From assembly GCA_965202625.1 (NCBI GenBank), contig CBDBBI010000010.1, forward strand, positions 2,144,001-2,208,000: a DNA stretch of 64,000 nucleotides. Reading direction: 5' to 3'. Numbering within the stretch: position 1 is the first letter of the stretch; each line of letters begins with the position of its first letter. The notes beneath the pieces were generated by a model. That model saw only the letters and a program-made list of their open reading frames with translations, was not told the origin of the DNA and made no database searches. The DNA comes from a bacterium. GTDB lineage: Bacteria > UBA8248. A program made the translations under genes and the position numbers. This document shows positions 7,852-61,619 of the stretch, piece by piece.

Positions 7852-8742
7852 ATGACGATTACGAAAGTGGACGGATACGCCTATTATCCCCAAAGCAGGG
7901 GGCGTATTGAGGCGATGCGGCAGGCCGACCCCGCCAGAACGCCCTGGACGCCGCTGCCCCGACCGCTCGCCGAATGCCGGGTCACCCTCGTCTCCACGGC
8001 GGGCATATTCATGAAGGGGGACGTCTCCTTCGATTACGCGCGCGAATGGCGAGAGCCGCACTGGGGGGATCCCACCCACCGGGAGATTCCGAAATCGGCC
8101 GGCCAGGACGATTGCGAATACTCCCATCTGCACGTCAACACCGAATATCTGAAAGCGGACAGGAACGTGGCGTTTCCGGTGGACGTTTTTCTGGACTACG
8201 AGCGGGAGGGCAGGATCGGCACCCTCGCCGACACGCTGTATTCCACCATGGGCTACACGCCCAACTTCCATCCCCTGATCAAGAAGACGGCCCCCCTCAT
8301 GGCGGAGAAGATGCGCTCTGAGGGCGTGGATGCGGCGTTTTTGTTTCCCGTCTGACCGCTTTGCATGCGGTCCGTGAGCCTGCTGCAAAGAAAGCTGGAA
8401 GAGCTGGGAATCGCCACCATCTCGATATGCAACCAGCCCGCCGTCTCCGAGAAGGTCTGCGTACCGAGGGCGGCGTTCATTCAGTATCCCTTCGGACGGA
8501 TTCTGGGAGACGTGGGCGACAGGGCGGGCCAGCGCGCGGTGTGCGACGACGTGTGCGCACACCTGGAAGCCGCACGGGGGCCCAACGCCTATCGCCACCT
8601 GCCCCATGCGTGGCATGAGCCGCCCGAAGAGGCGCAGTGGAAGCCCCTGCAGCCCGCCCCCATGCACGTGCTGAGAAACAAGGGAACGGCGCCCAAAGGC
8701 CTCGCGCATTACCAGGACGACGAGCGGCCGGATTTGGCCTAG
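7852..8742 (+). CDS. GrdB/PrdB-family reductase selenoprotein B-like protein (Sec at TGA 8353-8355)
   Basis: Track ORFs 7840-8355 and 8365-8742 are in one frame; readthrough gives FPV-U-PLC; WTPLPRPLAECRVTLVSTAG, DPTHREIP, DRNVAFP and VPRAAFIQYPFG match the family; hairpin 8359-8390. Confidence 0.85.
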
Positions 8743-9074
8743 AACAGCCGCCCGCCGATGCGCGGGTTTTTCGCATCGGGAGATAAGAGCACCACCTCGC
8801 CCCGCGCGTTCGGGACGCCGAGCGTCAGCACCTCGGAGACGAAGGGGCCGATTTGTCTCGGCGGAAAGTTCACCACTCCGAGCACGAGCTTCCCCCTGAG
8901 CGCCTCCTTCTCGTAGAGGGCGACGATCTGCGCGGAGGATTTCTTCACGCCCACCTCCTCGCCGAAATCGATCCGGAGCTTGTAGGCGGGCTTTCGCGCC
9001 TCGGGAAAATCCTCCGCCTCGATGATGCGTCCCACGCGGACGTCGAGCTTCTCAAAATCCTCCATCGTCGCCAC
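8739..9074 (-). CDS. csaA: tRNA-binding protein/chaperone CsaA
   Basis: FEKLDVRVGRII, ARKPAYKLRIDFG, VNFPPRQIGPFVSEVL. Confidence 0.9.
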   Translation of the reverse strand: MATMEDFEKLDVRVGRIIEAEDFPEARKPAYKLRIDFGEEVGVKKSSAQIVALYEKEALRGKLVLGVVNFPPRQIGPFVSEVLTLGVPNARGEVVLLSPDAKNPRIGGRLF

Positions 9075-9115
9075 CTGGTCTCTCTCCTCCTCTGGTTCTG
9101 CGCTGCCCTTGGTAT

Positions 9116-10003
9116 TTACGCCTCGTCAATCGATTCGCCCTCGGTTTTCTCCATCTCCAGAATCTCCGCGCGCAGCAGCGTCGTCACGGGGCCGGGGGCG
9201 GGTATGGGGCGCGCGTCGACCTCCTGCACCGCGCACACCCGGCTGAACGATGAGGTGAGAAAGCACTCGTCCGCCGTGTAGAGGTCATAGAGCGTGAGGT
9301 CCGCCTCAGAGGCGGGAATCCCCTCGCGCGCGGCGATCTCCATCACCGCCCTTCGGGTGATGCCGTCGAGGGCGTTGTGGACGTGGGGCGTTTTCAGGGC
9401 GCCGTCCTTCACGAGAAAAACGTTCTCGCCTGGTGCCTCCGCCACGAAGCCGCCCGCGTCCAGAAGAATCGCCTCGTCATATCCCGCCTCCACGGCCTCG
9501 ATACGCGCCATCACGTTGTTGAGATAATTGAGCGACTTCACGCGCGCCTCCAGGGATGCGGACGGCACCTTGCGCACCGCCGCCGTCTTGAGGCGCAGCC
9601 CCGCACCCTTCGCGCGATAGCTCGCGCCCGTCTCGGGCGGCGGGGCGGGTGGGTGCAGCAGCACGGCGAGCGTCGCTTCTCCCGTCACCCTCGGATCGAG
9701 CAGGGGGTAGCCCGCTCCCCTGGAGACGACGAGGCGCAGATACACCTCGTCCACGCCCGACCTGCGCGCGCATTCCTTGACGATGTGCGCGATTCTCTCC
9801 CGGGGTTCGGGAAGGTCGATTTTGAGTGCGCGCGCGGAGTGTTCCATGCGGTCGAGATGCTCCCGGAAGCGGAAGATGCGCCGCCCCCTCAGCGTCATGG
9901 ATTCAAAGAGGCCGTCCCCGTAGAGAAACCCGTGATCAAAGGCGGAGACGCGCGCCTCGGAGGCGGGGACGTATGCGCCGTTCACGTAGCAGACGAGGGA
10001 CAT
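9116..10003 (-). CDS. aminotransferase class IV (branched-chain amino acid aminotransferase-like)
   Basis: DHGFLYGDGLFE, KSLNY PLP lysine, LDGITR. Confidence 0.9.
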   Translation of the reverse strand: MSLVCYVNGAYVPASEARVSAFDHGFLYGDGLFESMTLRGRRIFRFREHLDRMEHSARALKIDLPEPRERIAHIVKECARRSGVDEVYLRLVVSRGAGYPLLDPRVTGEATLAVLLHPPAPPPETGASYRAKGAGLRLKTAAVRKVPSASLEARVKSLNYLNNVMARIEAVEAGYDEAILLDAGGFVAEAPGENVFLVKDGALKTPHVHNALDGITRRAVMEIAAREGIPASEADLTLYDLYTADECFLTSSFSRVCAVQEVDARPIPAPGPVTTLLRAEILEMEKTEGESIDEA

Positions 10004-10014
10004 GGAGGTGCTCT

Positions 10015-10758
10015 CTAGATCGCGCACCAGCCGTCATCGACGATGAGGTCGAGGCCGTGTACCGCACTGGCGTCCTCGGAGGCGAGGAACACCGCCGCAC
10101 CCGCCATCTCGGCCGTCGATATGTAGGCCCGGCCCGTGGGGGTGTAGCTCGCCATGCGCTTCACGAACTCCGGGTCGTCCTGTAGGTGCTGGTTGAGGGG
10201 CGTGGCCGTGTTGCCCGGCGAGATGGAGTTCACGTTGATGCCGCACTTCGATATCTCCGCCGCAAGTGCGCGGGTGAGCATATAGACTCCGCCCTTGCTC
10301 GCACAGTAGGGCACCGCGTTGGGAAAGGCGTGGGTGGCGGCGATGGAGGCGACGAAGATGATCTTGCCGGCTTTCTTCTCCTTCATGATGGGCACGACCG
10401 CCTGGGCGAGCAGAAAGTTGCCCTTGAGGTTGACGTCGATGACGTCGTCCCATTCCTCCTCGGAATATCCCTCCAGCTCCTTGTTGATCATGATGCCCGC
10501 GTTTCCGACCAGGACGTCCACCGTCCCGAAGGCGGCCACCACGTCCGCCACCATCTCCTCCACGGCCGCCTTGCGGGATACGTCGCACGGAAACGCCCTG
10601 GCCGCCTCGCCGATCTCGGAGGCGAGGGCTTCTCCTTTCTCCGCAGTGCGGTTCACGATGGCCACGCGCGCACCCTCCTCCGCATAGCGGCGGCAGATGG
10701 CCGCACCGATTCCCTGCGAGCCGCCGGTGACGACAGCGACTTTCTCCTTCAGCCTCAT
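10015..10758 (-). CDS. short-chain dehydrogenase/reductase
   Basis: TGGSQGIG, NAG, YCASK, PG motif. Confidence 0.92.
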   Translation of the reverse strand: MRLKEKVAVVTGGSQGIGAAICRRYAEEGARVAIVNRTAEKGEALASEIGEAARAFPCDVSRKAAVEEMVADVVAAFGTVDVLVGNAGIMINKELEGYSEEEWDDVIDVNLKGNFLLAQAVVPIMKEKKAGKIIFVASIAATHAFPNAVPYCASKGGVYMLTRALAAEISKCGINVNSISPGNTATPLNQHLQDDPEFVKRMASYTPTGRAYISTAEMAGAAVFLASEDASAVHGLDLIVDDGWCAI

Positions 10759-11105
10759 GGGCGTCTCCTCCCCTCGGGGCGTTCGGGCTTTTCTGAAAGC
10801 GAAAAATCTCCCGCCTGATGCAGTGTGCCGCACATGATACCCCCCTTTGGCCGTGAGGGGAAGGGGGAGGGAATTGCCCCGTTCTGTCTCGTGCTCGCCG
10901 CCCGGCATGGCATCTCCGGAGAACCTATTCCTTGTAAATGTCCCCTTAAAGGGCTTTATCCAGTCGATACGCCTTAAAATACTCCGATATTTAGGGTTAT
11001 TTTGCTCCGAAATTTCTATTGCGACCTCAATATATGGAGACTATATTTTTATGGATATCGGAAGCGTGAAGTTTGAGAGGTTCTCATTCATATTTGGAGG
11101 CTGCG

Positions 11106-12089
11106 ATGCGAATAGACCCGGAAACACTGAAGAAGCTGCGCAAGGCGAGGGGGCTCAGCCAGGAGATGCTGGCGGACGTATCGAGAGTCTCCAAGAAAAC
11201 CATCGCCAGAATAGAGACGGGAAAGGGGGGCGAGACGCGCGGAGGCACCGCCAAGGAGCTTGCCAAGGCCCTGAGCGTCAAGATCGAAGTCCTGACCGGA
11301 GAGCCTGGGACTGCGCACGGAAACATGGCGGAGGAGAGCTCCGACTTCCTGGCCGGGGAAGGCGTCTCCAGTCGAATTTTAGGCACCGCGTTCTATCGCC
11401 ACAGGATTACCCTCAGTGGCGAAGCTCTGCTCGCCTATGACCTGGTGAGGGAGCATTACCGCGTGGACATGCTGTCGCTCGTTCATGCGGCACCACTGCT
11501 CTTCACCCTTCTGGCGGAGATGAGCCTCGCCGACCGCCGCCGCCGAGCCGATGAAGTGAACGCAGCCTTGGAAGGAAAATTCCCGGAACACCTAGCACCC
11601 CTGAATTTGCATCATCTCTGGGATGAGTTGGTCTTCATCTCCTGGCGGGATATTTTTGCCCGTAATGTAGGAGATCCTGAATATAATGAAATGTTCGATG
11701 ATTGCTATCGAAACGAAGAGTATTTTGAAGAAAGGCGCAACCCTTTCTCCGATTTTTTGGGCCGGCTGGCGAAGGATATGGGCCCCCAGAACGACGCGAT
11801 TGATCCTGAGAAGATACATTTCGATGTGGAAGGGAGCGGATTCCTCCACAAGTTCTCTCTTTTCAATAAATTCCGGGAAAAACTCACGGGCGGTTCCTCT
11901 CGCGCCGACTGCGCCCTTGATGGCGGATATGCGCGCATCAGGAATATTCCCAGAGAGCTCATGCCCCCGCGGAGAGCAGACGAGGAAGACGAGGCCGCCG
12001 CCGCGCGCGTGAAGTGGCTGGAGGAGCGCATTCCGGACGAGGACTGGGAGGAGTATCAAACTCATAGGCTGGTCAAAATCGAATTCTAG
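11106..12089 (+). CDS. XRE-family helix-turn-helix protein with long C-terminal domain
   Basis: LKKLRKARGLSQEMLA...TIARIETG HTH. Confidence 0.8.
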   Translation: MRIDPETLKKLRKARGLSQEMLADVSRVSKKTIARIETGKGGETRGGTAKELAKALSVKIEVLTGEPGTAHGNMAEESSDFLAGEGVSSRILGTAFYRHRITLSGEALLAYDLVREHYRVDMLSLVHAAPLLFTLLAEMSLADRRRRADEVNAALEGKFPEHLAPLNLHHLWDELVFISWRDIFARNVGDPEYNEMFDDCYRNEEYFEERRNPFSDFLGRLAKDMGPQNDAIDPEKIHFDVEGSGFLHKFSLFNKFREKLTGGSSRADCALDGGYARIRNIPRELMPPRRADEEDEAAAARVKWLEERIPDEDWEEYQTHRLVKIEF

Positions 12090-12116
12090 CAAATCTAAAT
12101 GAGGGAGGAAGCGAGA

Positions 12117-12458
12117 ATGCGTAAATTCCACCTGAACGTGACCAAACACGCCGAGGCGCGCATGAGTCAGCGAGGGGTGCGAAATAAGGGCGTCGCGTTG
12201 GTCTATCAACACGGGACGCAGATCGGCCCCTCCGAGTGGTTCATGAAACGCTCTGACGCTGCGCGTGAAATCCGGCAGCTGGAGCGCGACTTGGGGAGCG
12301 GGAACCAGCGATTCGAACCCGCTCTGAAGCGTAAGGTGCAGCGGCTTGAGCGTCTGAGGGGTCTCCAGGTCGTCGTTCAAGGCGACGCTTTGCTCACCTG
12401 CTATCGACCAAGCGAAGCGCATCAGCGTCGAGTGCGTCGCAGGGGGAGGAATACCTGA
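12117..12458 (+). CDS. DUF4258-like small basic protein (copy 1)
   Basis: TKHAEARMSQRGV motif; GGAGG RBS. Confidence 0.65.
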   Translation: MRKFHLNVTKHAEARMSQRGVRNKGVALVYQHGTQIGPSEWFMKRSDAAREIRQLERDLGSGNQRFEPALKRKVQRLERLRGLQVVVQGDALLTCYRPSEAHQRRVRRRGRNT

Positions 12459-13072
12459 TGTCTCCATTCCGCACGATTGAAATTGATTTCGACGTCCACA
12501 AAGCGATTGAGGCTCGACAAAATTTTGCCGATTCGCCGAATGATGTCTTGCGTCGTCTTTTGAGAATTGAAGATCGCGGTAGAGAAGCGCTGTCGGGCAA
12601 AGGCTTGACAGGGCGGGGGCCTTCTGAAAATTCCACAATCAGGAGGAGGGCGAACGATAAGCGCCGACCTGCGGGGAGCGCAAGTAAAAGAAAAAAAAGG
12701 CGCGTTAAAAAAAAGGGCGGTAGATATGCGGGCGGTGACGTAATTAGGGGCCAATTCCTGCATGTCCGCGCGAAACATCGTTTCGTTGAAGAAATGTCTC
12801 CGAGGGATGGGCTATCGTGGTGGGGCAAAGGAGGCTTGGAATTGCCCCATGGAACGAAGTTGCAGATGAGATATAACGGTCGCAAGTATACCGGCGTCAT
12901 CCATAATGGGGATTGGTTGGTGGAGGGCAGAGTGTATAAAAGTCCGTCACACGCAGCCGGTGGCGTTGCCGTCACTAAGAATGGGGGGAAAACTTCTCTT
13001 GACGGCTGGAGGTACTGGGAGGTTAAGCGCCCTTCTGATGAAAATTGGATTCCCATTGAAAAATTCCGCTAG
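12458..13072 (+). CDS. protein with N-terminal SeqA/RHH-like segment and C-terminal RAMA/DUF4357-like domain
   Basis: TIEIDFDVHK...NDVLRRLL; LPHGTKL...YKSPSHAA...DGWRYW. Confidence 0.6.
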   Translation: MSPFRTIEIDFDVHKAIEARQNFADSPNDVLRRLLRIEDRGREALSGKGLTGRGPSENSTIRRRANDKRRPAGSASKRKKRRVKKKGGRYAGGDVIRGQFLHVRAKHRFVEEMSPRDGLSWWGKGGLELPHGTKLQMRYNGRKYTGVIHNGDWLVEGRVYKSPSHAAGGVAVTKNGGKTSLDGWRYWEVKRPSDENWIPIEKFR

Positions 13073-13127
13073 TCAGATGAGGACAAAAAAGTTCTTGGTA
13101 ATTCGTCCAACAAGGGAGGAATAGCGA

Positions 13128-13568
13128 ATGTTGAAATTCCACCTGAACTTGACCGACCACGCCGAGGCGCGCATGAGCCAGCGAGGGGTGCGAAATAAAG
13201 ACGTCGCGTTGGTCTATCAACACGGGACGCAGATCGGCCCCTCCGAGTGGTTCATGAAAGACTCTGACGCTGCGCGTGAAATGGAAGGACGCCCTCCTGA
13301 GAGGGATGGGCGATCGTGGTGGGGGGAAGGCGTGGAGTTGCCCCATGGAACGAAGTTGCGGATGAAATACGGCCCTTGCGAGTATACCGGCGTCATCCAT
13401 AATGGCCATTGGTTGGTGGAGGGCAGAGAGTATGGAAGTCCGTCAGGCGCAGCCGGTGGTGTTGCCGTCACCAAGAAGGGGCAGAAAACTCATCTTGATG
13501 GCTGGATTTATTGGGAAGTGAAGCGCCCTTTTGACCAAGGTTGGGTTGTCATAAACAGATTGCGCTAG
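13128..13568 (+). CDS. chimeric DUF4258-like/RAMA-like protein
   Basis: First ~52 aa near-identical to 12117-12458; remainder similar to the C-terminus of 12458-13072. Confidence 0.65.
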   Translation: MLKFHLNLTDHAEARMSQRGVRNKDVALVYQHGTQIGPSEWFMKDSDAAREMEGRPPERDGRSWWGEGVELPHGTKLRMKYGPCEYTGVIHNGHWLVEGREYGSPSGAAGGVAVTKKGQKTHLDGWIYWEVKRPFDQGWVVINRLR

Positions 13569-13623
13569 CCGGATGAGGACAAAAAAGTTCTTGGTAATTC
13601 GCCAAACTAGGGAGGAAGCGAGA

Positions 13624-13992: not shown

Positions 13993-14273
13993 GCGGCGAG
14001 AGCACCGCGCCCGCGCCCGCCCTCACGCGCGAGGATCTGCCTTGCGCGGCTTTTGCAACGCCCTTTCAGCACCCTTGCATGGCCGTTTCCGAGCCGTTTA
14101 CGCCCCGAAAAACGGTCTTTATTCAGGGCGTTTCGCAATGACTTTTGTCCGGCTATATGTATGGGGGGTTCTGTGCGCCTCGGAGGCAATGGCGATGGCG
14201 GGGAGGGTGCGGAACGGCGAGGGGAGGGGGCGTTCCCGATTCCGGCGCAACCGCTCCCTCGGGCGTGTTGGAC

Positions 14274-16076: not shown

Positions 16077-16087
16077 GTCGCTGACTC

Positions 16088-18309: not shown

Positions 18310-18993
18310 TCATTCCGAATCGCGCACGTGGGCGTAGTATCGGCTGAGCCTCTGCGCCGGAACGCCCAGGGCGTAGAGGATGCTCAACCCCCACCAGATG
18401 AGAAGGCACCGGGGTTTGCCCCATGCGTCGATGCGGCGTCCGCTGGTGACGATGGGCGTCTCGATGACGGCGACGCGCCCGAAAGCGCGCATCCTCCTGC
18501 TGATCTCCCAATCCTCGAACAGGGGCGTATCGGGGTAGCCGCCCATGTGCTCGAACGCCTCGCGCCGGACGAAGATGGCCTGATCGCCCAAAAAAATTTT
18601 CGCCATTCGGGCGCGCGCGTTGGCACTCAGACTGATGAGGCGGCTGAAGCGATCCTTCCGGTCGAAGCTGTGGAGGAAGCCTCCGCCGGCGACGTCGTCC
18701 GCGCGCATGACGTCCCGGATCGCCCGAAGCCCCCCCCGGGGCAGCCGCGTGTCGCAGTGCAGGAACAGAATCGTCTCCCCAAGCGCCAGGGCGGCGCCCG
18801 CGTTCATCTGGCGCGCGCGTCCGGGCTTTGACCTGACGATGAGGGCGCGCCCCTCGGCCAGGTCGAGCGACCCATCGACGCTTCCCCCGTCGGCGAGGAT
18901 GATCTGCTTCTCCCCCGGCTGGGCATCGAGCATGTCGAGGGCATCGCGCAGGCGCCGCCCTTCGTTGAGGACGGGCACGACGATGGAGAGCAT
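18310..18993 (-). CDS. GT2 glycosyltransferase (TIGR04283-like, rSAM/selenodomain-associated)
   Basis: SIVVPVLNE, DGGS, GRARQMNAGA, FLHCD, GDQAIF, FED, TSGRR. Confidence 0.85.
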   Translation of the reverse strand: MLSIVVPVLNEGRRLRDALDMLDAQPGEKQIILADGGSVDGSLDLAEGRALIVRSKPGRARQMNAGAALALGETILFLHCDTRLPRGGLRAIRDVMRADDVAGGGFLHSFDRKDRFSRLISLSANARARMAKIFLGDQAIFVRREAFEHMGGYPDTPLFEDWEISRRMRAFGRVAVIETPIVTSGRRIDAWGKPRCLLIWWGLSILYALGVPAQRLSRYYAHVRDSE

Positions 18994-30397: not shown

Positions 30398-30952
30398 ATG
30401 AGCGACCTCATCACCGGCCAAATCGTCTATGACCCCCGAGGGGTGGTCGAGGCCGAGCCCCAGCCTATCGCGCCGCGCGTCCGGAATTTGAAGGGTCTCA
30501 ATCTCGGCGTCCTAGACAACACGAAATGGAACGCGCGCAGGCTTCTTGAGAAAACCACGGCGCTGATGGAGGCGGAGTGCCCCTTCGCGCAGGTGCGTTA
30601 CTACAAAAAGGAGAGTTTTTCCAAGAACGCGGCGCCTGCGCTGATTGCCCAAATCGCGCAGGAGAACGACGTTGTCCTCACGGCGATTGGCGACTGAGGC
30701 TCCTGCACCTCGTGCTGTATGCACGACGCGGTCTCCCTGGAGCAGGTGGGGTTGCCCACCGCTGTGGTGGTGACGGATGTTTTTCTGCATGAAGCCCACG
30801 TGCAAAGGGCGGCGTTGGGGATGGACGGTCTCGACCCCGTGGTCATCAAGCATCCTCTGAGCACGCTCTCGGATGAGAAAATATCAGCGCGAGCGAGCGA
30901 TGCGGCTCGGCAGGCGTTAAAAGTCCTACTTAGCGAATATATCACCCTTTGA
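30398..30952 (+). CDS. UGSC-family selenoprotein (Sec at TGA 30695-30697)
   Basis: Track ORFs 30398-30697 and 30719-30952 are in frame; readthrough gives IGD-U-GSCTSCCMHD; hairpin TCGTGC-TGTAT-GCACGA at 30710-30726. Confidence 0.9.
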
Positions 30953-30954
30953 CG

Positions 30955-31520
30955 ATGAAGTCACTCGAAGACGTTCGCGTTCTGGACCTCACGCAGTTTC
31001 TCTCGGGTTCCCATGCCACGCTTTTTCTGGCGCGTCTGGGCGCGGAGGTCATTTGGATTGGCAATCCGACCACAGGCGATCCGGTGGCCTACTCCCCTCC
31101 CTTCGTCGGCGCGAAGGGCGTTTCCTATCATTCCCGGACAGATGAGGACATGGGCATCGCCTACCTCAAGCGCACGCGCGGGAAAAAGGCGATCACCCTC
31201 AACCTCAAGGACCCTAGAGACCGGAAGATGTTCTACGGACTCGTCGATCGGGCCGACGTCGTGGTGGAAAATTTCTACATCGACGTCACCAAACGGCTCA
31301 AGATCGATTACGAAACTCTTCAGGCGCGCAAGACCTCTTTGATCTACTGTTCCATCACGGGCTACGGCCAGAGGGGCCCGGACGAGGGATACGACGCCGT
31401 CTCCCAGGCCGCCTCGGGGTTGATGAACCTCGTGGGTTTTCCTGACGGCCCGCCCACCAAGGCAGGTTCTGCTCTGGGTGACAGCATAGGCGGGATGTTC
31501 GCCTTCCGTGCCATTCTTGC
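30955..31520 (+). pseudogene. truncated CaiB/BaiF class III CoA-transferase, fused in frame to the next gene
   Basis: LEDVRVLDLTQFLSG, RGKKAITLNLK, ADVVVENF, GYDAVSQAASGLM; only about 190 aa of a ~400 aa family. Confidence 0.7.
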
Positions 31521-32286
31521 TGCGCTTTGTTTTCTTCTTGGGGGGTGTCTGGCGCGCATTGATCCGCAAACCCTTGATTTGGTGGGTGAGGCGCGACGCG
31601 CCTTTGACGCCGCCTATTTCATGGTCGAGGTGGACGGCGCGCTCATTGAAGGCCGAGTGCGGCGGAAATACGTTCAGGAGAGGCTCGCGAGCCTCAGGCA
31701 AAAACGGCCCACCGTCATTTATGCGCACGGCTGCTCAGGGCTTGGTGCCTGGAGTTTGCGCTATATGCGCCTGCTAGCGCGGGCCGGCTACGCCGTCCTC
31801 GCCCCCGATAGCTTCGCGCGCCGCTATCGACCCGACACCTGTCTTCCCTCCGCGCGTCAGCCGATTCCGGGCGCGCCGTTCAGAAGGGTGGGGCAGATGC
31901 GCCAGGAGGAGATTCACCACGCAGCGTATCGGGTACGGCGGATGCGCTGGGTGGACAGAAACAACCTGTTTCTGATGGGCCACAGCCAGGGCGGCTCCGC
32001 CGTGGCTTCCTACCAGGGGGATGAGTTCAGGGCGCGCGTCATTAGCGGCTCCATTTGCGGGCGCGGCGTCCTCATGCCGCCAGGGACCCCCGCCCTCGCC
32101 CTATACTCGAAGGACGATCCGTGGCGGCGCGGCAGGCCTGCCGATCTGTGTTTTCGCAAGGCGGGAAAGCGGGGCGTGAACATGGAGTTTCATCTGTTCG
32201 AGGGCCGGGCGCACAATTTCTCCCGGAATGAAACCGCGCGGCGCCTCATTCTCGATTTTTTGGCGAAGCATCGAAGAGCGGAATAA
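31495..32286 (+). CDS. dienelactone hydrolase-like protein, possible lipoprotein
   Basis: LLGGC lipobox-like segment, YAHGCSG, GHSQGG, C-terminal GRAHNF. Confidence 0.65.
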   Translation: MFAFRAILAALCFLLGGCLARIDPQTLDLVGEARRAFDAAYFMVEVDGALIEGRVRRKYVQERLASLRQKRPTVIYAHGCSGLGAWSLRYMRLLARAGYAVLAPDSFARRYRPDTCLPSARQPIPGAPFRRVGQMRQEEIHHAAYRVRRMRWVDRNNLFLMGHSQGGSAVASYQGDEFRARVISGSICGRGVLMPPGTPALALYSKDDPWRRGRPADLCFRKAGKRGVNMEFHLFEGRAHNFSRNETARRLILDFLAKHRRAE

Positions 32287-32760: not shown

Positions 32761-34131
32761 GTGAGGTCTATGAACCCAGCGACAGCCGAAGCCTTGCGGG
32801 CGATGGACAGAGCGCATGTCTGGCACCCTCTCATGAACCATTCGGGGATGGAAGAAAATCCGCTGGACGTGGTTGTGAAGGCTAAGGGTTCGACTATTCA
32901 GGACGCCGGCGGCAGGGAATACATCGACGCCATGGCGGGGCTTTGGTGCGTGAACATTGGTTATGGGCGCGATGCGGTCGCCAGGGCGGCGTATGAGCAG
33001 ATGCTGGAGCTCGCTTATTATCCCCTCACCCAGGTGAACCCGCCGGCGGCCAGGCTCGCCAAGCGCCTCGTCTCCCTGCTGCCGGAAGGACTCGAGCGCG
33101 TCTGGTTCGTGAACTCAGGCTCCGAGGCGGTGGACACCGCTATCAAGATCGCCCGCGTCTATGGGCGACGGGGCGGAGGGAGGCGATACAAGATCATCGC
33201 CCGCCACCAGGGATATCACGGGGCGACCATCGGCGGGGCGAGCGTCACCGGACAGACGCTCAGGCGCGCGACGTTCGAACCGCTTTTGCCGGGGGTGATT
33301 CACGTGAGCGCGCCCTACTTCTACCGAAGCGGCGCGGCCACGGAAGAAGAGCTTGCCAGACGTTGCGCGGAGGAGCTCGACGAGGTGATTCGCTACGAGG
33401 ACCCGGAAACGGTGGCGGCCTTCATCGCCGAGCCCGTCATCGGCGGCGGCGGGGTGATACCCCCCCCGGCGGACTACCTCAAGCGCATGCGCGAGGTTTG
33501 CGCGCGCCACGGCGTCTTGTTCATCGCTGATGAGGTCATCACCGGCTTCGGTCGCACGGGCGCGCTCTTCGCCTCTGATCTCTACGGGATCAGTCCGGAC
33601 GTCATGACGATGGCGAAGGGGCTGAGCAGCGCTTACCTGCCCATTGGGGCGACGGCGACCACGAACGAGATATTCGAGGCGCTGAACGAGGAGGGCGAGT
33701 CGGGATTCCTGCAGATCAACACCTATGGCGGACACCCCGCCTCCTGCGCGGCGGCGCTTAAAAACCTCGATATCATGATGGCGGAGGAACTGCCCGCGCG
33801 CGCGCGAAAAGTAGGTGCCTATCTGGGTGGGCTTTTGCGCAAGCTTTCGGACATCCCCTGCGTGGGCGATGTGCGCGGCGTGGGCCTCATCTGGGGAGTG
33901 GAACTCATAGAGGAGGACGGCGCGCCCTTATCGACGGCGGCCACCTCCAGGGCGCTCGCCTACGCGAAGGAGCAAGGGGTGATTTTCGGCAAAAACGCTG
34001 GCGTCGCCGCCGGTCCCTCGAATACCGTCACCATCAGTCCGCCGCTGGTGTTCACCGAGGCGGAGGCGGAGCGCGCCGCCGCCGCCCTCGCCGCTGCCTT
34101 GCGCCGCGTCCAGGCGGAGATCGGAGCGTGA
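32761..34131 (+). CDS. aminotransferase class III (omega-amine/taurine-pyruvate type)
   Basis: DAMAGLWCVNIGYG, NSGSEA, YHG, DEVITGFGRTG, AKGLSS. Confidence 0.92.
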   Translation: MRSMNPATAEALRAMDRAHVWHPLMNHSGMEENPLDVVVKAKGSTIQDAGGREYIDAMAGLWCVNIGYGRDAVARAAYEQMLELAYYPLTQVNPPAARLAKRLVSLLPEGLERVWFVNSGSEAVDTAIKIARVYGRRGGGRRYKIIARHQGYHGATIGGASVTGQTLRRATFEPLLPGVIHVSAPYFYRSGAATEEELARRCAEELDEVIRYEDPETVAAFIAEPVIGGGGVIPPPADYLKRMREVCARHGVLFIADEVITGFGRTGALFASDLYGISPDVMTMAKGLSSAYLPIGATATTNEIFEALNEEGESGFLQINTYGGHPASCAAALKNLDIMMAEELPARARKVGAYLGGLLRKLSDIPCVGDVRGVGLIWGVELIEEDGAPLSTAATSRALAYAKEQGVIFGKNAGVAAGPSNTVTISPPLVFTEAEAERAAAALAAALRRVQAEIGA

Positions 34132-34185: not shown

Positions 34186-34863
34186 ATGTCCAACATCACC
34201 ATGCTCGACGTTGAGGAGCTGAAGAAGACGAAGCTGGCCCCTTTCGTCAACAAGGCGCTCAAGCACCGCGCGCCTGACCCCGCCTTTCACGCCATGCAGG
34301 GTCACAACGAGGATTTGGCGAAGTCGATGTATCTGGCTTGGGGGACGCTGTTCAACACCGGTGCTATCGATCACAAGCTCAAGGAGATCATCCGCGTTCA
34401 GCTCTCCCGCCGCGCCTTTTGCAACTACTGAGGCAACGTCCGATCTGCTTCGGCGAAGCAGGCGGGCCTGACCGAGGAGATGATAGACGATGGCATCGAC
34501 AACTGGCGCGAGAGCGGGAATTTCACCGATGCCGAGAAACTGGCGCTCGAATACAGCGAACTCATGGACTCAGAGCCCGAGAAAATTGACGCGGCGTTCT
34601 ATGCGCGCCTGAATGCTCACTATTCAGAGGCGGAAATCGTGGAGCTCGGCTCCTTCATCGGCTTCAACGTTGGCTATCACACCTTTTTCAGAACGCTTGA
34701 TTTCTACCCCATGTTCTCCCCTGCCGGCCGGCTGGTGAGCCAGGAGGAATCGCGTCGCATCTATGGCGAGTGTCCCGTCTCGCACCTGGGCGGCCCGCTC
34801 GCGCGCGCCACGGGGGAGGAGGGTCAGGCGAATGGAAACGAAGGAGAGTCGCCATGCCGATAA
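34186..34863 (+). CDS. AhpD/carboxymuconolactone decarboxylase-like selenoprotein (Sec at TGA 34429-34431)
   Basis: Track ORFs 34186-34431 and 34480-34863 are in frame; LKEIIRVQLSRRAF-CNYU-GNVRS; FTDAEKLALEY; hairpin CTGCTTC-GGC-GAAGCAG at 34445-34461. Confidence 0.88.
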
Positions 34864-41207: not shown

Positions 41208-42767
<1,560 letters not shown>

Positions 42768-43083
42768 TGCTGAGAGGTTTTCGTTTTCAAGAAGCGTGGG
42801 AGGGGAGTGAGATTTATTTCCTCGTCTGGGGAATTGGATCGTTCTCTTGCCTGAGGATCGCGCGATGCCTTTTTACGCTTTCGGGCGTATTGAAGGATGA
42901 TTGCAAAACGAGCCGGTGCTTCGAGGTCAGCGGCCCGTCTCGGGCCGTCCATATCCTGTTCTTAAAATGACGCCACGGCGGGTATGCGAATCACTCCAAT
43001 GCAAGGAGATGCATTCGGTCAAATACCTGGGTGAGGCTTAGGTGTTGCGGAAGGGATTTTCGGAACGCGCAAGCCGCATTCAA

Positions 43084-43160
43084 GGGCCTATAGCTCAGTT
43101 GGTCAGAGCGCGCGCCTGATAAGCGCGAGGTCCCTGGTTCAAATCCAGGTAGGCCCACCA
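43084..43160 (+). tRNA. tRNA-Ile(GAT)
   Basis: Cloverleaf, anticodon loop CTGATAA, GGTTCAAATCC, CCA end. Confidence 0.97.
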
Positions 43161-43274
43161 TCTTGCGGGCGTGAAACGCATCGCAAGGGGAAATGGCGGA
43201 GGGACGGATGGACCGTTAAACCGAACCGAGAAAGGCTTGCCTTGGGGGCCGCTCCCTGAACTTAGTTTTACTAT

Positions 43275-43350
43275 GGGGATGTAGCTCAGTTGGGAGAGCA
43301 CCTGGTTTGCAACCAGGAGGTCGGCGGTTCGATTCCGCTCATCTCCACCA
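43275..43350 (+). tRNA. tRNA-Ala(TGC)
   Basis: Cloverleaf, anticodon loop TTTGCAA, GGTTCGATTCC, CCA end. Confidence 0.97.
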
Positions 43351-43524
43351 TTTTGAGATTTCACGCGCCTCGCTATTGGCTATAGTTTTCGTGACTATCA
43401 TTTTTTGGTGGTGCATTTCATGCGGGAGTTTCTCCCGTTTTTTGTTCTTTGACAATTGAATCGCGTGAATTGGCATAATCATGAAGGCTCTCAGTATTGA
43501 TTGAGAATCGTAATCTCAAGATTC

Positions 43525-46521
<2,997 letters not shown>

Positions 46522-46598
46522 GAATGGAGATTATTTGTTTCCAGTCGGGAGCCTCGTGATGCCAATCGCGCGATTCAGTTGTCGGGATTTTCAATCAT

Positions 46599-46714
46599 TT
46601 CCGGTGGCTATAGCGGCGGGGCCACACCCGTTCCCATCCCGAACACGGCAGTTAAGCCCGCCAGCGCCTATGGTACTGCGGTCCTTTCCGTGGGAGAGTG
46701 GGTCGTTGCCGGAA
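46599..46714 (+). rRNA. rrf: 5S rRNA
   Basis: TCCGGTGGC...CCCATCCCGAACAC...GTTGCCGGA. Confidence 0.97.
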
Positions 46715-46720
46715 TATGAC

Positions 46721-50689: not shown

Positions 50690-50697
50690 GAGGGGAA

Positions 50698-52359: not shown

Positions 52360-52375
52360 GTTTTCCGTCTCTTCT

Positions 52376-55855: not shown

Positions 55856-56805
55856 AAAAGGCACCATTTTGGTGCTAGGGAGCTCGAATGTCGACATCGT
55901 CGTTCGTGTGGATAGACTCCCGTCTGCGGGTGAAACGGTAATGGGAGAGAGCTTTCAGGAACATTGGGGTGGAAAAGGGGCGAACCAAGCTCTTGCTGCC
56001 GCCCGCGCTGGCGCGGAGGTCCATTTTGTCACCATGTTGGGAAATGACGCGGAAGGCGACGCCTATCGTCGTTATTTGATGGAAAGTGGGTTATCGCCCG
56101 ATGGCGTATTGCGTTGTAAGTCAAGGACGGGTAGGGCGCTGATTGTGGTGGGGAAAGGGGGTGAGAACCAAATCGCTGTGACTCCTGGCGCAAATCGGTT
56201 CCTCACGCCTGGAAGAATGAGAAGGAAACCAAGGCTTTTGGATTTCTGAGAGATTGTCTTAGCGCAACTAGGTCCCGGTTTCATCCATTACAGCCGTGTT
56301 CCGAAAGGGGAGGAGGCGCGGTGCTCGCAACATCTTAAATCCGGCCCCGGCGCCCGAAAGTTTGCCTCAAGAGCTGATTCGATTGGTCGATGTGTTGACG
56401 CCAAACGAAACGGAAGCGGCGAAGCTGGCCAAGCTCAAGAGAATACCCACGAGTGCCGAGGAGTTTTTGCGCGCTTCGCGCGCTTTGGAAATGTTGGGGC
56501 CTTCTTGCGTCATCATTACGGCGGGGGGAAAGGGCGCTTTTGTTCTGAATCAAAACAAGGCTTATTGGCTGAGAGCTCCCGTTGGACTGAAGGCGGTGGA
56601 TACGACAGGGGCGGGCGATGCTTTTTGTGGGGCGCTAGTGGCTAAATTTTCAGAGTGCACGGAACTTGAAGATGCGGTTCGTTTCGCAGTTGGCGCGGGC
56701 TCGTGTTCTGTAAAAAGACATGGTGCTCAGGCGGGCTTGCCTTCGCGCCGACAAATTATGAAAACCCAGGGCGAGGTGCGCCACAAACAGGTTTGGGTTG
56801 GTTGA
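55845..56805 (+). pseudogene. rbsK: ribokinase, disrupted by an in-frame TGA (56247) and a frameshift (~56270)
   Basis: GSSNVD and GGKGANQA in the first half; NPAPA, PNETE and DTTGAGD in the second half, in a different frame. Confidence 0.8.
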
Positions 56806-56910
56806 CTTCAATCAATAACCCGCATAGGGTAAATTTGAGTGGGTGTTGGATGAACGACATTCGCCTCTCATAATTTTGATTGCGTCGCCAACCAAAAGGA
56901 GAAACTCCTC

Positions 56911-57939
56911 ATGCCGATGGATTGGGATGAGTTCAAATCGAAAAGACAAGGCGGTGGCGGTGGCATGCCCCCACAAATCAAGCTGCCCCAGTTCCGTTTG
57001 CCCAGTTTCAAGCTGCCATCGGCGGCGATATTCGTGGTGGTCGTGCTGATTTGGCTGGCGTCTGGAATTTTCAGCGTTGGGCCGGACGAGCAAGGGATCG
57101 TTCTTCGATTCGGACAGATTGACCGAGTCGTGTCCTCGGGTTTGAACTATCATATCCCCTTCCCGATAGAGACTGCCTACACGCCGAAAGTAACAGAGGT
57201 AAAGCGCGTGGAAATTGGTTTCCGCACCATCGATCCGGGGCCTCCTGCGCGGTATTCGGACAAGCCCCATGAATCGAGAATGTTGACGGGTGATGAAAAC
57301 ATGGTGGACGTCGATATGATCGTTCAATACCGCATCGTAGAGGCGGACAAATACCTCTTCAAGGTTCGGAACCCGAAAGAGACTGTGATCCACGCTGCAG
57401 AGGCCGCCATCCGGCAAGTGGTAGGCAGCAAGCCCATTGATGAGGCGCTCACTACGGGAAAAGGCGCGATTCAACAAGAGACGTCGGTAGAGTTGCAAAA
57501 GATATTGGATCGCTATGAAACTGGTTTGCGCGTGGTGGCAGTACAGCTTCAAGACGTGACGCCGCCGCGAGAGGTTATCCATGCTTTTAAGGATGTGGCC
57601 AGTGCTCGTGAAGACAGGAACCGCCTCGTGAATGAGGCGCAGGGCTATCAAAACCAGGTGATACCGGAGACCCGGGGCAAGGTGGCCGCTGTTCTCAGAA
57701 AAGCGGAAGCCTACCGGGAGACAAAAATTCTTCATGCGCGCGGAGATGCGAATCGTTTCCTGGCGACGCTCAAAGAATACAGAAAGGCGCCAGCGATTAC
57801 GCGCGAACGTTTGTATCTCGAGATGATGGAGGAAGTGATGCCGACGGTGGACAAGGTGATCATGGATCAAGGCAAATCGGGTGTATTGCCGATCCTCCCG
57901 CTCCGGGGCAATGGAATCGAAGGGATAACGAAACGATGA
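56911..57939 (+). CDS. hflK: FtsH modulator HflK
   Basis: MPMDW N-terminus, TM segment, MLTGDEN, AFKDVASAR, TRERLYLE. Confidence 0.95.
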   Translation: MPMDWDEFKSKRQGGGGGMPPQIKLPQFRLPSFKLPSAAIFVVVVLIWLASGIFSVGPDEQGIVLRFGQIDRVVSSGLNYHIPFPIETAYTPKVTEVKRVEIGFRTIDPGPPARYSDKPHESRMLTGDENMVDVDMIVQYRIVEADKYLFKVRNPKETVIHAAEAAIRQVVGSKPIDEALTTGKGAIQQETSVELQKILDRYETGLRVVAVQLQDVTPPREVIHAFKDVASAREDRNRLVNEAQGYQNQVIPETRGKVAAVLRKAEAYRETKILHARGDANRFLATLKEYRKAPAITRERLYLEMMEEVMPTVDKVIMDQGKSGVLPILPLRGNGIEGITKR

Positions 57940-58841
57940 GCACCGAGGGAACCGTAAAATTGCCCAAAAAGACGATCGTTCTGTTTGTTGTCGTGGCGCT
58001 TCTTGTCGTTGCGTCCAATGCTCTTTTGTTTACGGTTCGCGAAGACAGGCAAGTGGTTGTCACTCGGTTTGGTAAGCCGGTGCGCGTTTTGCGTAATGCG
58101 GGTCTTCACTATCGGTTACCATTTGTGGAGCAACTATCGTTTTTTGATCGTCGCTTGCTTGAGTATGACTCCAACCCGACGGAGATCATCACGCAGGATA
58201 AAAAGTCCCTCGTTGTGGATAATTTTTCGCGTTGGCGTATCGTCGACCCGCTGCAATTTCTGCGCACGGTCCGAAGCGAAACGGGGGCGCAGGCGAGGCT
58301 TGATGACATCATCTACAGTGAATTGCGTCTGGAACTTGGCCGCAAGGATTTGATCGACATCGTGGCCAAAGACCGCGCGCAGTTGATGGCCAAAGTCACG
58401 AGAGAGAGCGATAAAAAGGCGCGTCAATATGGCATTCAGATAGTAGACGTTCGCTTGAAGCGCGCGGATTTGCCGGGGGAGAACTTAAAGGCGATTTATG
58501 GGCGCATGCAAGCTGAGCGTCAAAGGATTGCGCGCCAATATCGCTCAGAAGGAAAAGAGCAGGCCGAAAAGATACGGGCGGAAACGAATCGTGAACGTGA
58601 CGTGCTCTTGGCGGGAGCCTATGAGAAAGAACAAGTCATCAAAGGCGAGGGAGACGCCAAAAGCATTGACATTAACGCTAGGGCGTTTGGGCAGGATCAG
58701 GAATTTTATGCGTTCTTGAAGAGTTTGGAAGTTTATCATCGCTCTCTAAAAGATAAGACGACTATCGTGTTGCCCGCGAGCAGTGATTTCCTCAGATTTT
58801 TGCAGGGGTCAAAGAACGAAAATCTAAAAAAATCCGAATGA
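57936..58841 (+). CDS. hflC: FtsH modulator HflC
   Basis: TQDKKSLVVDNF, VDVRLKRADLP, RMQAER, EFYAFLKSL. Confidence 0.95.
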   Translation: MSTEGTVKLPKKTIVLFVVVALLVVASNALLFTVREDRQVVVTRFGKPVRVLRNAGLHYRLPFVEQLSFFDRRLLEYDSNPTEIITQDKKSLVVDNFSRWRIVDPLQFLRTVRSETGAQARLDDIIYSELRLELGRKDLIDIVAKDRAQLMAKVTRESDKKARQYGIQIVDVRLKRADLPGENLKAIYGRMQAERQRIARQYRSEGKEQAEKIRAETNRERDVLLAGAYEKEQVIKGEGDAKSIDINARAFGQDQEFYAFLKSLEVYHRSLKDKTTIVLPASSDFLRFLQGSKNENLKKSE

Positions 58842-58856
58842 GGCTGATTCTGGTGA

Positions 58857-58891
58857 AAAAGAACCCCCTCTTTATGAGGGGGCTCTTTTTC
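58857..58891 (+). terminator. intrinsic terminator after hflC
   Basis: AAAAGAACCCCCTC-TTTAT-GAGGGGGCTCTTTTT. Confidence 0.8.
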
Positions 58892-59091
58892 TGAATGGCG
58901 AAGGAAAGACGGAAAGCGGATTTTCCGGTTTTTCTGTATGAAGGGAAGGCATGGGCGATGCCCAAAAGAGTTGCCTGCTATCTTTCCTTTTATATATGAA
59001 GACGCGTCAATCAATCATCCGTGAGTGGGGAGCAAAAATGTGGAGGTGCACTTGCCTGAAATATTGCTTAATATGATTGCTAGATGACTTC

Positions 59092-59261
59092 ATACAAAAT
59101 GTAGTGTGTTTTTTCATGATTCCGCAATATGTAGCGATCTGGATAGAGTTTTACCCACAGTTTATCCAGAGGGGAATAGACCAATTAGATTATAAAAAGC
59201 AATGGGTTATAGGGAATCTATATGTAGTATAACTCTGAGCTGTGGATACAATATCTTGCAC
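59092..59261. promoter_or_regulatory. cluster of 4 NrdR-box-like and 3 DnaA-box-like motifs
   Basis: NrdR-like 16-mers at 59092, 59122, 59215, 59246; DnaA-like 9-mers at 59151, 59162, 59241. Confidence 0.55.
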
Positions 59262-59422
59262 GTAAGAGAAAACTCCGGCTTTCTAACCGCTCTCTCGGGA
59301 ACGAATCATTTTGTCGGTTTCACCGTCAAGCGCGTTGCGGCGAAGGCGCGACGCCCAAATATGGGCAAAAGAGCAAAGCAAGCGACGTTTTTTGCTGTCT
59401 TGACCACCCTGATGGAAATGTC

Positions 59423-59788
59423 TCATTGCTTGTCCCTTAAATAACCATCGCTTCCATCAAGCCAGTCTTTCCGAATGGGGCTGAATATATCGTAATCTAT
59501 CACCGTTTCATCACCCACGACTTCTGCGGAGTGTGGAACGTTTGGGGGGATCAAAAGCGTTTCTCCAGGCCCAATCTCCACAGGTTCGTCGTCAATGACG
59601 AATCTAAGTTTTCCCTTGATGACGTGAGATATCTGCTCGTTCTCGTGGCTGTGCGTAGGAACCCGGCATCCCGGTTTTAGCTTGATCCAACAGAGCATCT
59701 CTTTTTCACCCACCACCATTTTTCTCGAAAAAGAAGTGGTCACGGTTTCTTCTACTATCTCATTCCAATGATATTTTTTGGCGCGCAT
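59423..59788 (-). CDS. cupin domain protein
   Basis: PTHSHENEQ, IPPNVPH, DIFSPIRKD. Confidence 0.9.
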   Translation of the reverse strand: MRAKKYHWNEIVEETVTTSFSRKMVVGEKEMLCWIKLKPGCRVPTHSHENEQISHVIKGKLRFVIDDEPVEIGPGETLLIPPNVPHSAEVVGDETVIDYDIFSPIRKDWLDGSDGYLRDKQ

Positions 59789-59993
59789 GGCGTATCTCCT
59801 CAGATTCGGTCGCTTCAATTGCGAATGCAAGAAGCCCTTTTTTCACTTAAGCGCGGTCTTTGTGATGAGAACGTGCTCAGGAAATCTTGCTCTATGAACT
59901 TATGCAGTCCATATGACATTCATGCTTTTCACTGGAAAACGTCCCATTGTGCGTTGTTTCACTTTTGGGTGGCGGGGAAACGCGCCGACGTAG

Positions 59994-60272
59994 TTACTGC
60001 TTATACTCAGGAAGCGTTCTGTTGAATCCTTTCCGCATGACCCGACCCTTTTTGAGCACGTAATAATCCTGGCCATATCGGATGACGCTGGTGAGAGGCG
60101 GAATTTGACATTCTTTAGAGATGATCTGGTTTTTTTGGGATTCGTCGCGGGGAAGGTAGCGCTCCGCGTCTTGGTCGGATAAATAAACCTTCCGATTGCA
60201 GTTGCTAGACGCTTTTTTGTATTCACCTTCCAGTCTGATGTTCTTGCATTCGCAAGCAATCGCATCGCTCAT
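59994..60272 (-). CDS. hypothetical protein
   Basis: AGGAG RBS, 92 aa, four Cys. Confidence 0.45.
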   Translation of the reverse strand: MSDAIACECKNIRLEGEYKKASSNCNRKVYLSDQDAERYLPRDESQKNQIISKECQIPPLTSVIRYGQDYYVLKKGRVMRKGFNRTLPEYKQ

Positions 60273-60481
60273 TGTCGATCTCCTGGAAAAGTAGGCCTAT
60301 GCTAAGAAAACGTACCTCTTGGTGTCAAGACCACTTCAGGTGAGAAACTTCAAAATTCTCAGAGAGGGGAGAGATTCCAAATTAGTTTGAAATATCTCCG
60401 TCCCCCAAGTATAATTGATTGGGCTTTTTCCTCATTATTTTGGATTTGTTTGCACTTCACTCATTTTCGGAGGTTACACAG

Positions 60482-60982
60482 ATGCCACGCATGGCGGAAA
60501 AGATAATTGATTCGGGCAATCCCTTCCCCAGCATTGAAGTAGATCGAGTGGGGGGAGGTAAAATCTCTCTTCCCGGCGATCTGTCGGGTGCATGGGGAGT
60601 AGTTCTTTTATACCGGGGGCACTGGTGACCGTATTGCAAGCAGCAACTTACTGCCTTCGAACGAGCTGTGAAGCTCCAGGAAGAGGGCGTCAAGGTTGTT
60701 GCCGCCTCCGTGGACACGGAGGAGCAAGCCCAGGGGACGATAGATGAATGTGGACTCCACTTTCCCGTGGGCTATGGCCTCGACAACAAACAGGTATCCG
60801 AGCTCCTTGGTTGTTTTTATGAAGAGAAACGCCAGATTCTTCACAGCACGGGCTACGTTCTAAAGCCGGATGGAACGGTTGCTGTGGGTGTTTACAGTAC
60901 CGGGCCCATCGGCCGGCTCGTGTGGCAGGATGTTCTGAATATGGTTCAGTTTCATAAGAAAATGATGGCGGCGCAAAACTAG
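60482..60982 (+). CDS. peroxiredoxin-like (AhpC/TSA) selenoprotein, UxxC (Sec at TGA 60626-60628)
   Basis: GGAGG RBS; LYRGHW-U-PYC; downstream ORF 60668-60982 is in frame; VVAASVD, YSTGPIGRL. Confidence 0.88.
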
Positions 60983-60994
60983 GAGCGGATTTTT

Positions 60995-61038
60995 GAGAGC
61001 ACCCTCTCAGCCGTTGATGCTGAGGGGGTGTTTTTCTC
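60995..61038 (+). terminator. intrinsic terminator-like hairpin between the two Prx-like genes
   Basis: CACCCTCTCAGC-loop-GCTGAGGGGGTG-TTTTT. Confidence 0.7.
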
Positions 61039-61091
61039 GTGCGCAAGCTCGGTTCGCCGGCTTTCATCTTTCAATAAAAGTGGAGTTGATT

Positions 61092-61619
61092 ATGCCGAAA
61101 GTGAACGATTTGTTTCTAGATACCGGGGATGATTTCCCGAGTATGTATATCTCGAAAGTGGGTGGTGGAAAAATTACTCTGCCTGATGATTTGAGGGGTG
61201 CGTGGGGTGTTGTGTTGTTCTACCGAAGTCATTGGTGACCTTATTGACTCGCACAGATGGCGGGGTTCTCCCGGGCGGGAGAAAAGCTTGAAGCGGAAGG
61301 CATCAAAGTCGTCGCGGCGTCTACTGACCCTGAAAATGAAGCCATGCAATCCATCGAAGCGAGCAAGGTGAACTTTCCAGTCGGTCACAGCCTGAATCCC
61401 GTGCGCATCTCTGAGGTGACAGGCGCTTATTACGCGCCCGAAGCGGGCGAGAAGCCAAGACCATACCTTCATTCTACGAATTTTTTGCTCTCGCCGGACG
61501 GGAAGGTGAACGTCGCGCTATACAGCTCAGGCCCTCTCGGGCGGCTCGTCTGGCAGGACGTGATCCAGGCTGTGCAGTTTCGAAAAAGACGGATGGCTCA
61601 GGCTCGGGATAGGGATTAG
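61092..61619 (+). CDS. peroxiredoxin-like selenoprotein with two Sec, UxxU (TGA 61236-61238 and 61245-61247)
   Basis: TAC CGA AGT CAT TGG TGA CCT TAT TGA CTC GCA CAG ATG = YRSHW-U-PY-U-LAQM; paralog of the upstream gene along its whole length. Confidence 0.82.

Follow-up and report, generated by a model that had tools for sequence, protein, structure and literature searches.

The window analysed here is a stretch of 64,000 nucleotides (assembly GCA_965202625.1, contig CBDBBI010000010.1, positions 2,144,001 to 2,208,000) and holds five plus-strand genes whose coding frames run through six in-frame TGA codons, which we read as codons for selenocysteine (Sec, U). These are a GRDB/PrdB-like gene (7852-8742), a UGSC-family gene (30398-30952), an AhpD/CMD-like gene (34186-34863) and two neighbouring peroxiredoxin-like (Prx-like) genes of the AhpC/TSA type (60482-60982 and 61092-61619), the starts of the last two being inferred, for the first of them from homologue alignment. 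An earlier reading of the same DNA from its letters alone, the sequence-only reading, had placed the TGA codons at 8353, 30695, 34429, 60626, 61236 and 61245 and had sorted the five genes into four families. All six codons are present at these positions, and Pfam and NCBIfam profiles return the same four families. The window corresponds to C10:2144001-2208000; the genome comprises 3,087,072 bp on 10 contigs and is estimated to be 99.69% complete with 4.69% contamination.

Each frame continues past its TGA to a later stop, at 8740-8742, 30950-30952 (TGA), 34861-34863 (TAA), 60980-60982 (TAG) and 61617-61619 (TAG), as had been claimed, and no further stops break the five frames. The residues around the codons are FLFPV-U-PLCMR, TAIGD-U-GSCTS, AFCNY-U-GNVRS, YRGHW-U-PYCKQ and YRSHW-U-PY-U-LAQMA, in the same order. 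Tryptophan is encoded by TGG in all five genes (5, 1, 2, 3 and 3 times, respectively), and TGA terminates ordinary genes of the window, with stops ending at 1110, 20602 and 57939, the last of which closes a Band_7 gene; on both points the sequence-only reading was correct.

The PrdB-like gene carries its Sec codon at 8353-8355 (U168, motif UPLC) and matches the Pfam family GRDB with 40.5 bits (cut-off 22). The equivalog model TIGR04483 aligns with residues 31-253, U168 within, and scores 111.9 bits; because this lies below the cut-off of 300, the product is predicted to be a member of the GRDB superfamily only and not the PrdB subunit of D-proline reductase. The orthologue (84-88% identity) has one TGA in 20 of 20 same-genus genomes. 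The region downstream of each TGA was aligned with orthologues, and the distinct third-position bases were counted per codon. For the PrdB-like gene, a SECIS-like hairpin (SECIS, selenocysteine insertion sequence) occupies 8359-8390 (+), positions 7-38 from the T of TGA, and the third positions of seven codons, +9 to +27, do not vary in any of the 11 sequences compared. In our own reading of the printed alignment, the lower-stem pair 9/36 covaries through two synonymous sites (U-A 3, C-G 6, U-G 1, mismatch 1). A third PrdB-like paralogue (C10:1926784-1927482) has one TGA here and two in 13 of 20 same-genus genomes; a second predicted Sec position exists in these relatives. Immediately upstream of the window gene lies a DinB_2/MDMPI_N plus SCP2 protein (6778-7809, +), and elsewhere in the genome a Sec glutaredoxin is fused to a DinB_2 domain (C10:2876262-2877116, L091); DinB-type thiol enzymes may be linked with selenoproteins.

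The UGSC gene has its Sec codon at 30695-30697 (U100, motif D-U-G-S-C) and passes the cut-offs of both PF24696 (195.3 bits against 25) and NF041046 (154.5 against 125). Orthologues of 82-85% identity occur in 17 of 18 same-genus genomes, the genome without one being 79% complete, and every one of those tabulated has one TGA. The SECIS-like hairpin at 30710-30726 (+; UCGUGC, loop UGUAU, GCACGA) coincides with five codons, +15 to +27, whose third positions are invariant in 11 of 11 sequences. Same-genus genomes hold 4-9 matches to the family, all with TGA, and the analysed genome holds three; by these counts the predicted UGSC selenoproteins are strongly expanded in the genus. Directly after this gene, an open reading frame (ORF) at 30949-32286 (+) has an unusual architecture, in which a match to a family III CoA-transferase profile, limited to its first half (1-179 of 366), is combined with a dienelactone-hydrolase domain. 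The AhpD-like gene, with its Sec codon at 34429-34431 (U82), matches PF02627 with 30.3 bits (gathering cut-off 23) and has the motif C-N-Y-U at the CxxC position; NF053654, the 'YciW-related (seleno)protein' model, gives 60.4 bits, below its cut-off of 310. The orthologue (86-90% identity) has one TGA in 20 of 20 same-genus genomes, and in an own-genome BLAST comparison the U aligns with U in two other AhpD-like genes and with Cys in a paralogue. Its SECIS-like hairpin lies at 34445-34461 (+; CUGCUUC, loop GGC, GAAGCAG), and six codons from +15 to +30 keep the same third base in all 11 sequences.

The two Prx-like genes match PF00578 with 69.1 and 63.5 bits, respectively (cut-off 26), and carry the motifs UPYC (Sec codon 60626-60628) and UPYU (61236-61238 and 61245-61247). 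They were compared with 21 related loci from metagenome-assembled genomes (MAGs) named Nitrospinota or Nitrospinaceae, or just 'bacterium'. The first gene keeps UPYC in all 20 of the related loci that hold it. In the UPYU gene the first Sec position is TGA in 21 of 21 related loci (22 of 22 with the window), and both U residues align with invariant Cys (W81 C82 P83 C85) in 10 of 10 sequences when the protein is compared with the UPYC paralogue next to it and with eight Cys homologues of full length (45-55% identity). The second position is TGA in 10 and TGC in 11 of the 21 loci, or 11 against 11 with the window, and at least two TGA/TGC changes fall on the gene tree, a quick tree with four long branches flagged.

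A single SECIS-like hairpin follows in the UPYU gene (61266-61283, +; UUCUCCC, loop GGGC, GGGAGAA), and its stem shows no difference among the 22 sequences. Besides TGG and TGA, the only run of invariant third positions is formed by the six codons from +30 to +47, nearly all others varying. The hairpin is 27 nt and 18 nt away from the first and the second UGA, respectively, with the loop starting 37 nt and 28 nt after them, so that one element can plausibly serve both codons. This comparison shows predicted Sec and Cys interchanging at the second position on a short evolutionary scale, beside an unchanged putative SECIS. The nearest entries to the UPYU protein in the protein collection are pieces of 119-122 aa that begin after the motif, and one of 120 aa is the window's own product. 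The sequence-only reading had expected annotation to fragment such genes; these pieces bear this out for the UPYU gene at least.

The machinery that had been named as the thing to look for, tRNA-Sec, SelA, SelB and SelD, is encoded in full in this genome. The sole tRNA-Sec gene above the Rfam cut-off lies at C10:1674549-1674641 (RF01852, 75.8 bits; gathering score 47), and ARAGORN calls it tRNA-SeC with anticodon tca (TCA). SelA scores 565.5 bits (cut-off 267.9), SelB, aligned along its entire profile (1-580), 361.4 bits (cut-off 242.25) and SelD 332.6 bits, above its curated cut-off, with one in-frame TGA of its own. The genome retains TGA as its commonest stop: among 2227 frames of at least 300 codons, 1133 end in TGA, 630 in TAG and 464 in TAA. 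Together with the conservation of the codon in orthologues and the Cys of homologues at the same positions, the machinery and the stop usage support the claim of site-specific recoding to Sec with no change of code.

In four window genes, all but the first Prx-like one, the TGA is thus followed by a hairpin with frozen synonymous sites, as expected of SECIS elements. Across the genome, a simple SECIS rule, which asks of the best hairpin an apical loop starting with G at +16 to +37 and dG <= -11, picks out 20 of the 36 Sec sites recognised by then, against 20 of 150 Cys codons in frame (Fisher p = 3.7e-7) and 22 of the 294 remaining TGA candidates.

We conclude, with a probability of about 0.93, that the five genes of the window are genuine selenoprotein genes, their six UGA codons being translated as Sec by SelB- and SECIS-directed insertion in a selenium-rich, Nitrospinota-like host. 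Under this interpretation, SelB with Sec-tRNA(Sec), anticodon UCA, would be guided to each UGA by a bacterial SECIS hairpin located 10-30 nt downstream, inside the coding sequence, and Sec would substitute for the redox-active Cys in motifs of the CxxC type. The single hairpin of the UPYU gene would be within reach of both UGA codons, and the product, with its presumed pair of selenols, could form a diselenide. Several observations weigh against this conclusion. The matches of the PrdB-like and AhpD-like proteins to their NCBIfam models stay below the curated cut-offs (TIGR04483, 111.9 against 300; NF053654, 60.4 against 310). No clearly conserved SECIS hairpin is seen in the aligned orthologues of the first Prx-like gene, where a 4-bp hairpin at 60634-60646 has one covarying pair (U-A 4, C-G 14, U-G 2 and C-A 1 of 21). 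The SECIS rule misses 16 of the 36 sites, hairpin energy by itself gives no separation between Sec sites and controls (Mann-Whitney p = 0.09), and an Rfam scan of the window at gathering thresholds gave no match to a SECIS family. Outside the window, a PGA_cap gene (C10:1681156-1681968, -) has TGA where nine of nine orthologues have Cys, plus a frameshift near residue 250-263, and is probably a pseudogene in which Cys changed to TGA with no gain of Sec; an amidohydrolase-like frame (C10:201177-202181) looks broken, its upstream half reading like the wrong frame.

These two damaged domains are what speaks for general gene decay, in which the in-frame TGAs would be nonsense mutations in pseudogenes. 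Such decay is present in the genome but rare beside 41 conserved sites, and as an account of the window it is very unlikely: the same TGA is retained in orthologues of 80-90% identity in 17-20 genomes per gene, and the five frames are free of other stops. A count over the main contig of in-frame stops with coding-like flanks on both sides points the same way, since the Cys spacing of CxxU or UxxC is found at 31 of 495 TGA but at only 6 of 310 TAG and 6 of 233 TAA (12 of 543 for these two together), an enrichment contrary to general decay. Downstream of the TGA of a CoA-transferase-like gene elsewhere in the genome, described below, orthologous sequences differ by 56-63 synonymous against 23-29 non-synonymous changes. 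Another possibility is that translation ends at each UGA and that the downstream parts are separate small genes, as in automatic annotation. The pieces of 119-122 aa filed as proteins of their own agree with this, yet the family profiles cross the TGA in one frame, the motif residues that flank it are conserved with Cys homologues, and the pieces would lose the redox motif or the core of the fold; we hold this to be highly improbable as well.

Some bacteria possess tRNA-Sec-like tRNAs that are charged differently, and UGA might be recoded here to Cys or another residue through such a tRNA. The free exchange of Cys and Sec forms at the second UPYU position would suit this idea. Against it stand SelA and SelD, the makers of Sec on the tRNA, both above cut-off and the latter itself with a TGA, and the single tRNA-Sec-like gene above the Rfam cut-off, which together leave it a slim chance. 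A changed genetic code, with TGA as a sense codon everywhere, draws on nothing beyond the open frames; with TGA closing about half of the long frames (1133 of 2227) as well as ordinary window genes, and with Trp as TGG, its probability is negligible.

Counted over the whole genome, this Nitrospinota-like marine bacterium has no fewer than 40 selenoprotein genes, the majority from thiol-oxidoreductase-type families. The Nitrospinota are marine nitrite oxidisers. A gene was taken as supported if a family profile spans the TGA in one frame, mostly with U also opposite U or Cys of a paralogue. A first batch of 40 candidates outside the window (38 scanned against NCBIfam or Pfam, two assessed by translation only) yielded 31 supported genes and a second batch of 20, of which 19 were scanned, yielded four; with the five of the window this amounts to 40 genes, 41 Sec codons and 16 families. 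In the own-genome BLAST check, U lies opposite U or Cys of a paralogue for 28 of the 36 genes recognised by then. The total of 40 is a minimum, since the scan depends on recognisable flanks and leans on nearby Cys. It upholds the earlier suggestion of an unusually large selenoproteome, with 40 genes supported in 3.09 Mb. The density from which that suggestion was drawn is not representative: with 5 of the 40 genes on just 2% of the genome, the window is a local hotspot, so its density cannot be extrapolated.

The families are led by AhpD/CMD with ten genes and DSBA-like with four, followed by GRDB/PrdB-like, UGSC, Prx-like and OsmC-like with three each. Trx-like, Grx (one fused to DinB_2), rhodanese and deiodinase-like proteins account for two genes each, and SelD, Ogt/MGMT, DUF3179, the ArsC family, Rdx/SelW-like and CoA_trans for one each. 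In the Ogt/MGMT methyltransferase (C10:2039560-2040255, L031), Sec replaces the acceptor Cys (IP-U-HRV), and this single-turnover repair protein would therefore spend one Sec per repair. A copy of the PrdB-like gene (window 7852-8736), 98% identical and with the TGA, lies on the small contig C2 (C2:12685-13569); the small contigs, nine in all, may represent strain variants or parts duplicated in assembly.

The CoA_trans member, a CoA-transferase subunit-A-like gene at C10:1017697-1018524, has an in-frame TGA at residue 105 of the stop-to-stop frame (T-E-H-A-U-A-S). In the extracted stretch L085, positions 1501-2337 correspond to C10:1017688-1018524, and a subunit-B-like ORF comes after the gene (L085:2334-3092). 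Compared with family I CoA-transferase subunit A, the gene product matches PF01144 across U105 with 76.6 bits (cut-off 23), and the subunit-A subfamily model TIGR02429 gives 39.8, below its 128.5. Among 50 other genomes of the phylum, every match of at least 63% identity has exactly one TGA (33 genomes, five genera), and every match of at most 53% has none; the TGA occupies the same codon in five of five orthologues checked. It is followed by a perfect 7-bp hairpin (GGCUGCG-GGC-CGCAGCC), over which the third positions of seven codons are frozen in six of six sequences. The TGA column holds Cys in five full-length homologues (47-54% identity) and Glu in four more distant ones. No full-length relative above 54% identity was found in the protein collection, which does hold pieces of 166-170 aa that start 2-6 residues past the TGA column, one of them labelled Candidatus Tectomicrobia. 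To our knowledge, CoA-transferases are an enzyme class not otherwise known to use Sec. A CoA-transferase selenoprotein family was not found in the review PMC13188914 with its table of selenoprotein families, in deep-Sep or in the main text of the BSepDB paper (PMC13326102), a search that stopped short of the supplementary and website lists; a literature search for such a family returned no paper either. We tentatively propose, at somewhat less than even odds, that the gene represents an undescribed selenoprotein family with Sec at a subfamily-specific Cys position (E-H-A-U/C).

Many other in-frame stops were set aside. With the coding-potential scan alone, Sec sites cannot be told apart from neighbouring genes in the same frame, and its candidates taken without the Cys filter (TGA 68, TAG 46, TAA 33) are about proportional to stop usage. 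Family scans resolved C10:1322033(-), 1311091(-), 1734013, 2228537, 2444401 and 2580976 into adjacent genes. The TGA lies upstream of the domain at C10:1546949(-) and 1161553(-), and at or past the C-terminal end of the match at C10:1721363 and 2818446(-); C10:1085871 is a short MR_MLE fragment with TGA at a non-Cys position. No family match was obtained for C10:2053414(-), 2257180(-), 1707049(-), 1577730(-), 2461528, 22111, 410385 and 2034188, nor for 59074(+) of the window (C10:2203074). The frame at C10:1932392(-) has only 28 codons. C10:1701194(-) and 2834228(-) (L054:693-695 and L055) belong to a short repeat and are surrounded by several stops; this repeat, ...KER-TGA-KGRSKQVVERDGG..., recurs at several genomic places with 66-83% identity over about 24 residues and is not a gene in that frame. 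Within the window, 62486(-) falls between a cyclase gene and a cupin gene, and 34129(+), as we read the ORF list, is the codon that terminates the aminotransferase gene 32761-34131. The candidate at 1286(-), which overlaps two plus-strand ORFs, and those at 42657, 46426, 47224 and 58892, three of them in or beside the rRNA operon, were set aside without a family scan. That operon is complete (41208-46714: 16S, tRNA-Ile(GAT), tRNA-Ala(TGC), 23S, 5S). A class of C-terminal Sec showed no enrichment, Cys being nearby at 17 of 200 TGA, 8 of 129 TAG and 7 of 94 TAA, and among pairs of stops within 10 codons in the genome scan only the UPYU pair of the window looked real.

The glycosyltransferase gene at 18310-18993(-), which had been noted for its likeness to TIGR04283, does fit this model (216.6 bits against a cut-off of 182) and is not itself a selenoprotein gene. 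NCBIfam currently names the family arsenosugar biosynthesis glycosyltransferase, and its older name is 'selenodomain-associated'. As a pointer to Sec use it fails, because the radical-SAM partner family TIGR04167 is encoded elsewhere in the genome, with no internal stop.

SelL is a UxxU selenoprotein with a diselenide, and the UPYU gene is likewise UxxU, with one hairpin behind both UGA codons. By the model NF040769 ('SelL-related redox protein'), the UPYU protein is not a member of the SelL family because it scores 26.1 bits against a cut-off of 120; the UPYC protein gives no match and the third Prx-like gene, elsewhere in the genome, gives 52.8. In a 2026 review, Prx-like PF00578 proteins are listed as 'UxxC, UxxU' with '1~2' Sec (PMC13188914), and UxxU sequences were reported in a Prx-like family by the Global Ocean Sampling (GOS) study (PMC2398784); the window pair shares with these the AhpC/TSA fold and Sec at the CxxC positions. 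The review also lists UGSC, PrdB, AhpD-like, CMD-like, OsmC-like, DsbA-like, deiodinase-like, rhodanese forms, MGMT and DUF3179 among known families (PMC13188914), and the GOS study ranks UGSC, PrdB, AhpD-like and Prx-like with the marine selenoprotein families of highest abundance (PMC2398784). The window matches the Sargasso Sea/GOS marine selenoproteome in the same four families and in the motifs UxxC, UGSC and CxxU (PMC2398784; PMC13188914). In contrast to that metagenomic collection, the genes stand here in one near-complete genome, with the machinery present and several paralogues each. For the PrdB-like genes, no match to PrdA or GrdA, the partner subunits in the D-proline/glycine reductase complex, was found in the 99.69% complete genome, although control genomes gave none either, so that these searches had no positive control.

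Larger selenoproteomes have been reported. The review gives at least 57 selenoproteins for the Olavius Delta 1 symbiont and 63 for a Methylomirabilota MAG as the largest among those it describes (PMC13188914), and the BSepDB paper, which also lists 63, includes in the top ten of its Table 2 three MAGs named Nitrospinota, Nitrospinaceae or Nitrospinae, in GTDB UBA8248, with 54, 50 and 48 genes (PMC13326102). Beyond that paper, our literature search on Nitrospina selenoproteins returned nothing. As in those MAGs, the selenoproteome of the analysed genome is large and led by thiol-oxidoreductase-like families; it is smaller than theirs, with 40 supported genes against 48-54, and at 3.09 Mb the genome is smaller too. 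Set against Sec-rich bacteria, as the sequence-only reading had advised, the selenoproteome is large but no record, being below the published maxima, and the lineage is already flagged as rich in selenoproteins. Since both the families of the window and the Sec richness of the lineage are in print, the genome is to be seen as a new, well-assembled member.

Altogether, the analysis supplies a near-complete reference, with a single main contig, for a lineage represented in the sources covered here only by counts in a database table. Because automatic annotation splits such genes, some 40 redox proteins of this organism would be missing or truncated in public protein sets. The alternation of UPYU and UPYC beside the same putative SECIS amounts to a natural experiment, and the CoA-transferase-like gene offers the selenium field a candidate for a new selenoprotein family. 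A heavy reliance on selenium for thiol-redox chemistry and peroxide defence would tie the ecology of the Nitrospinota to the supply of selenium.

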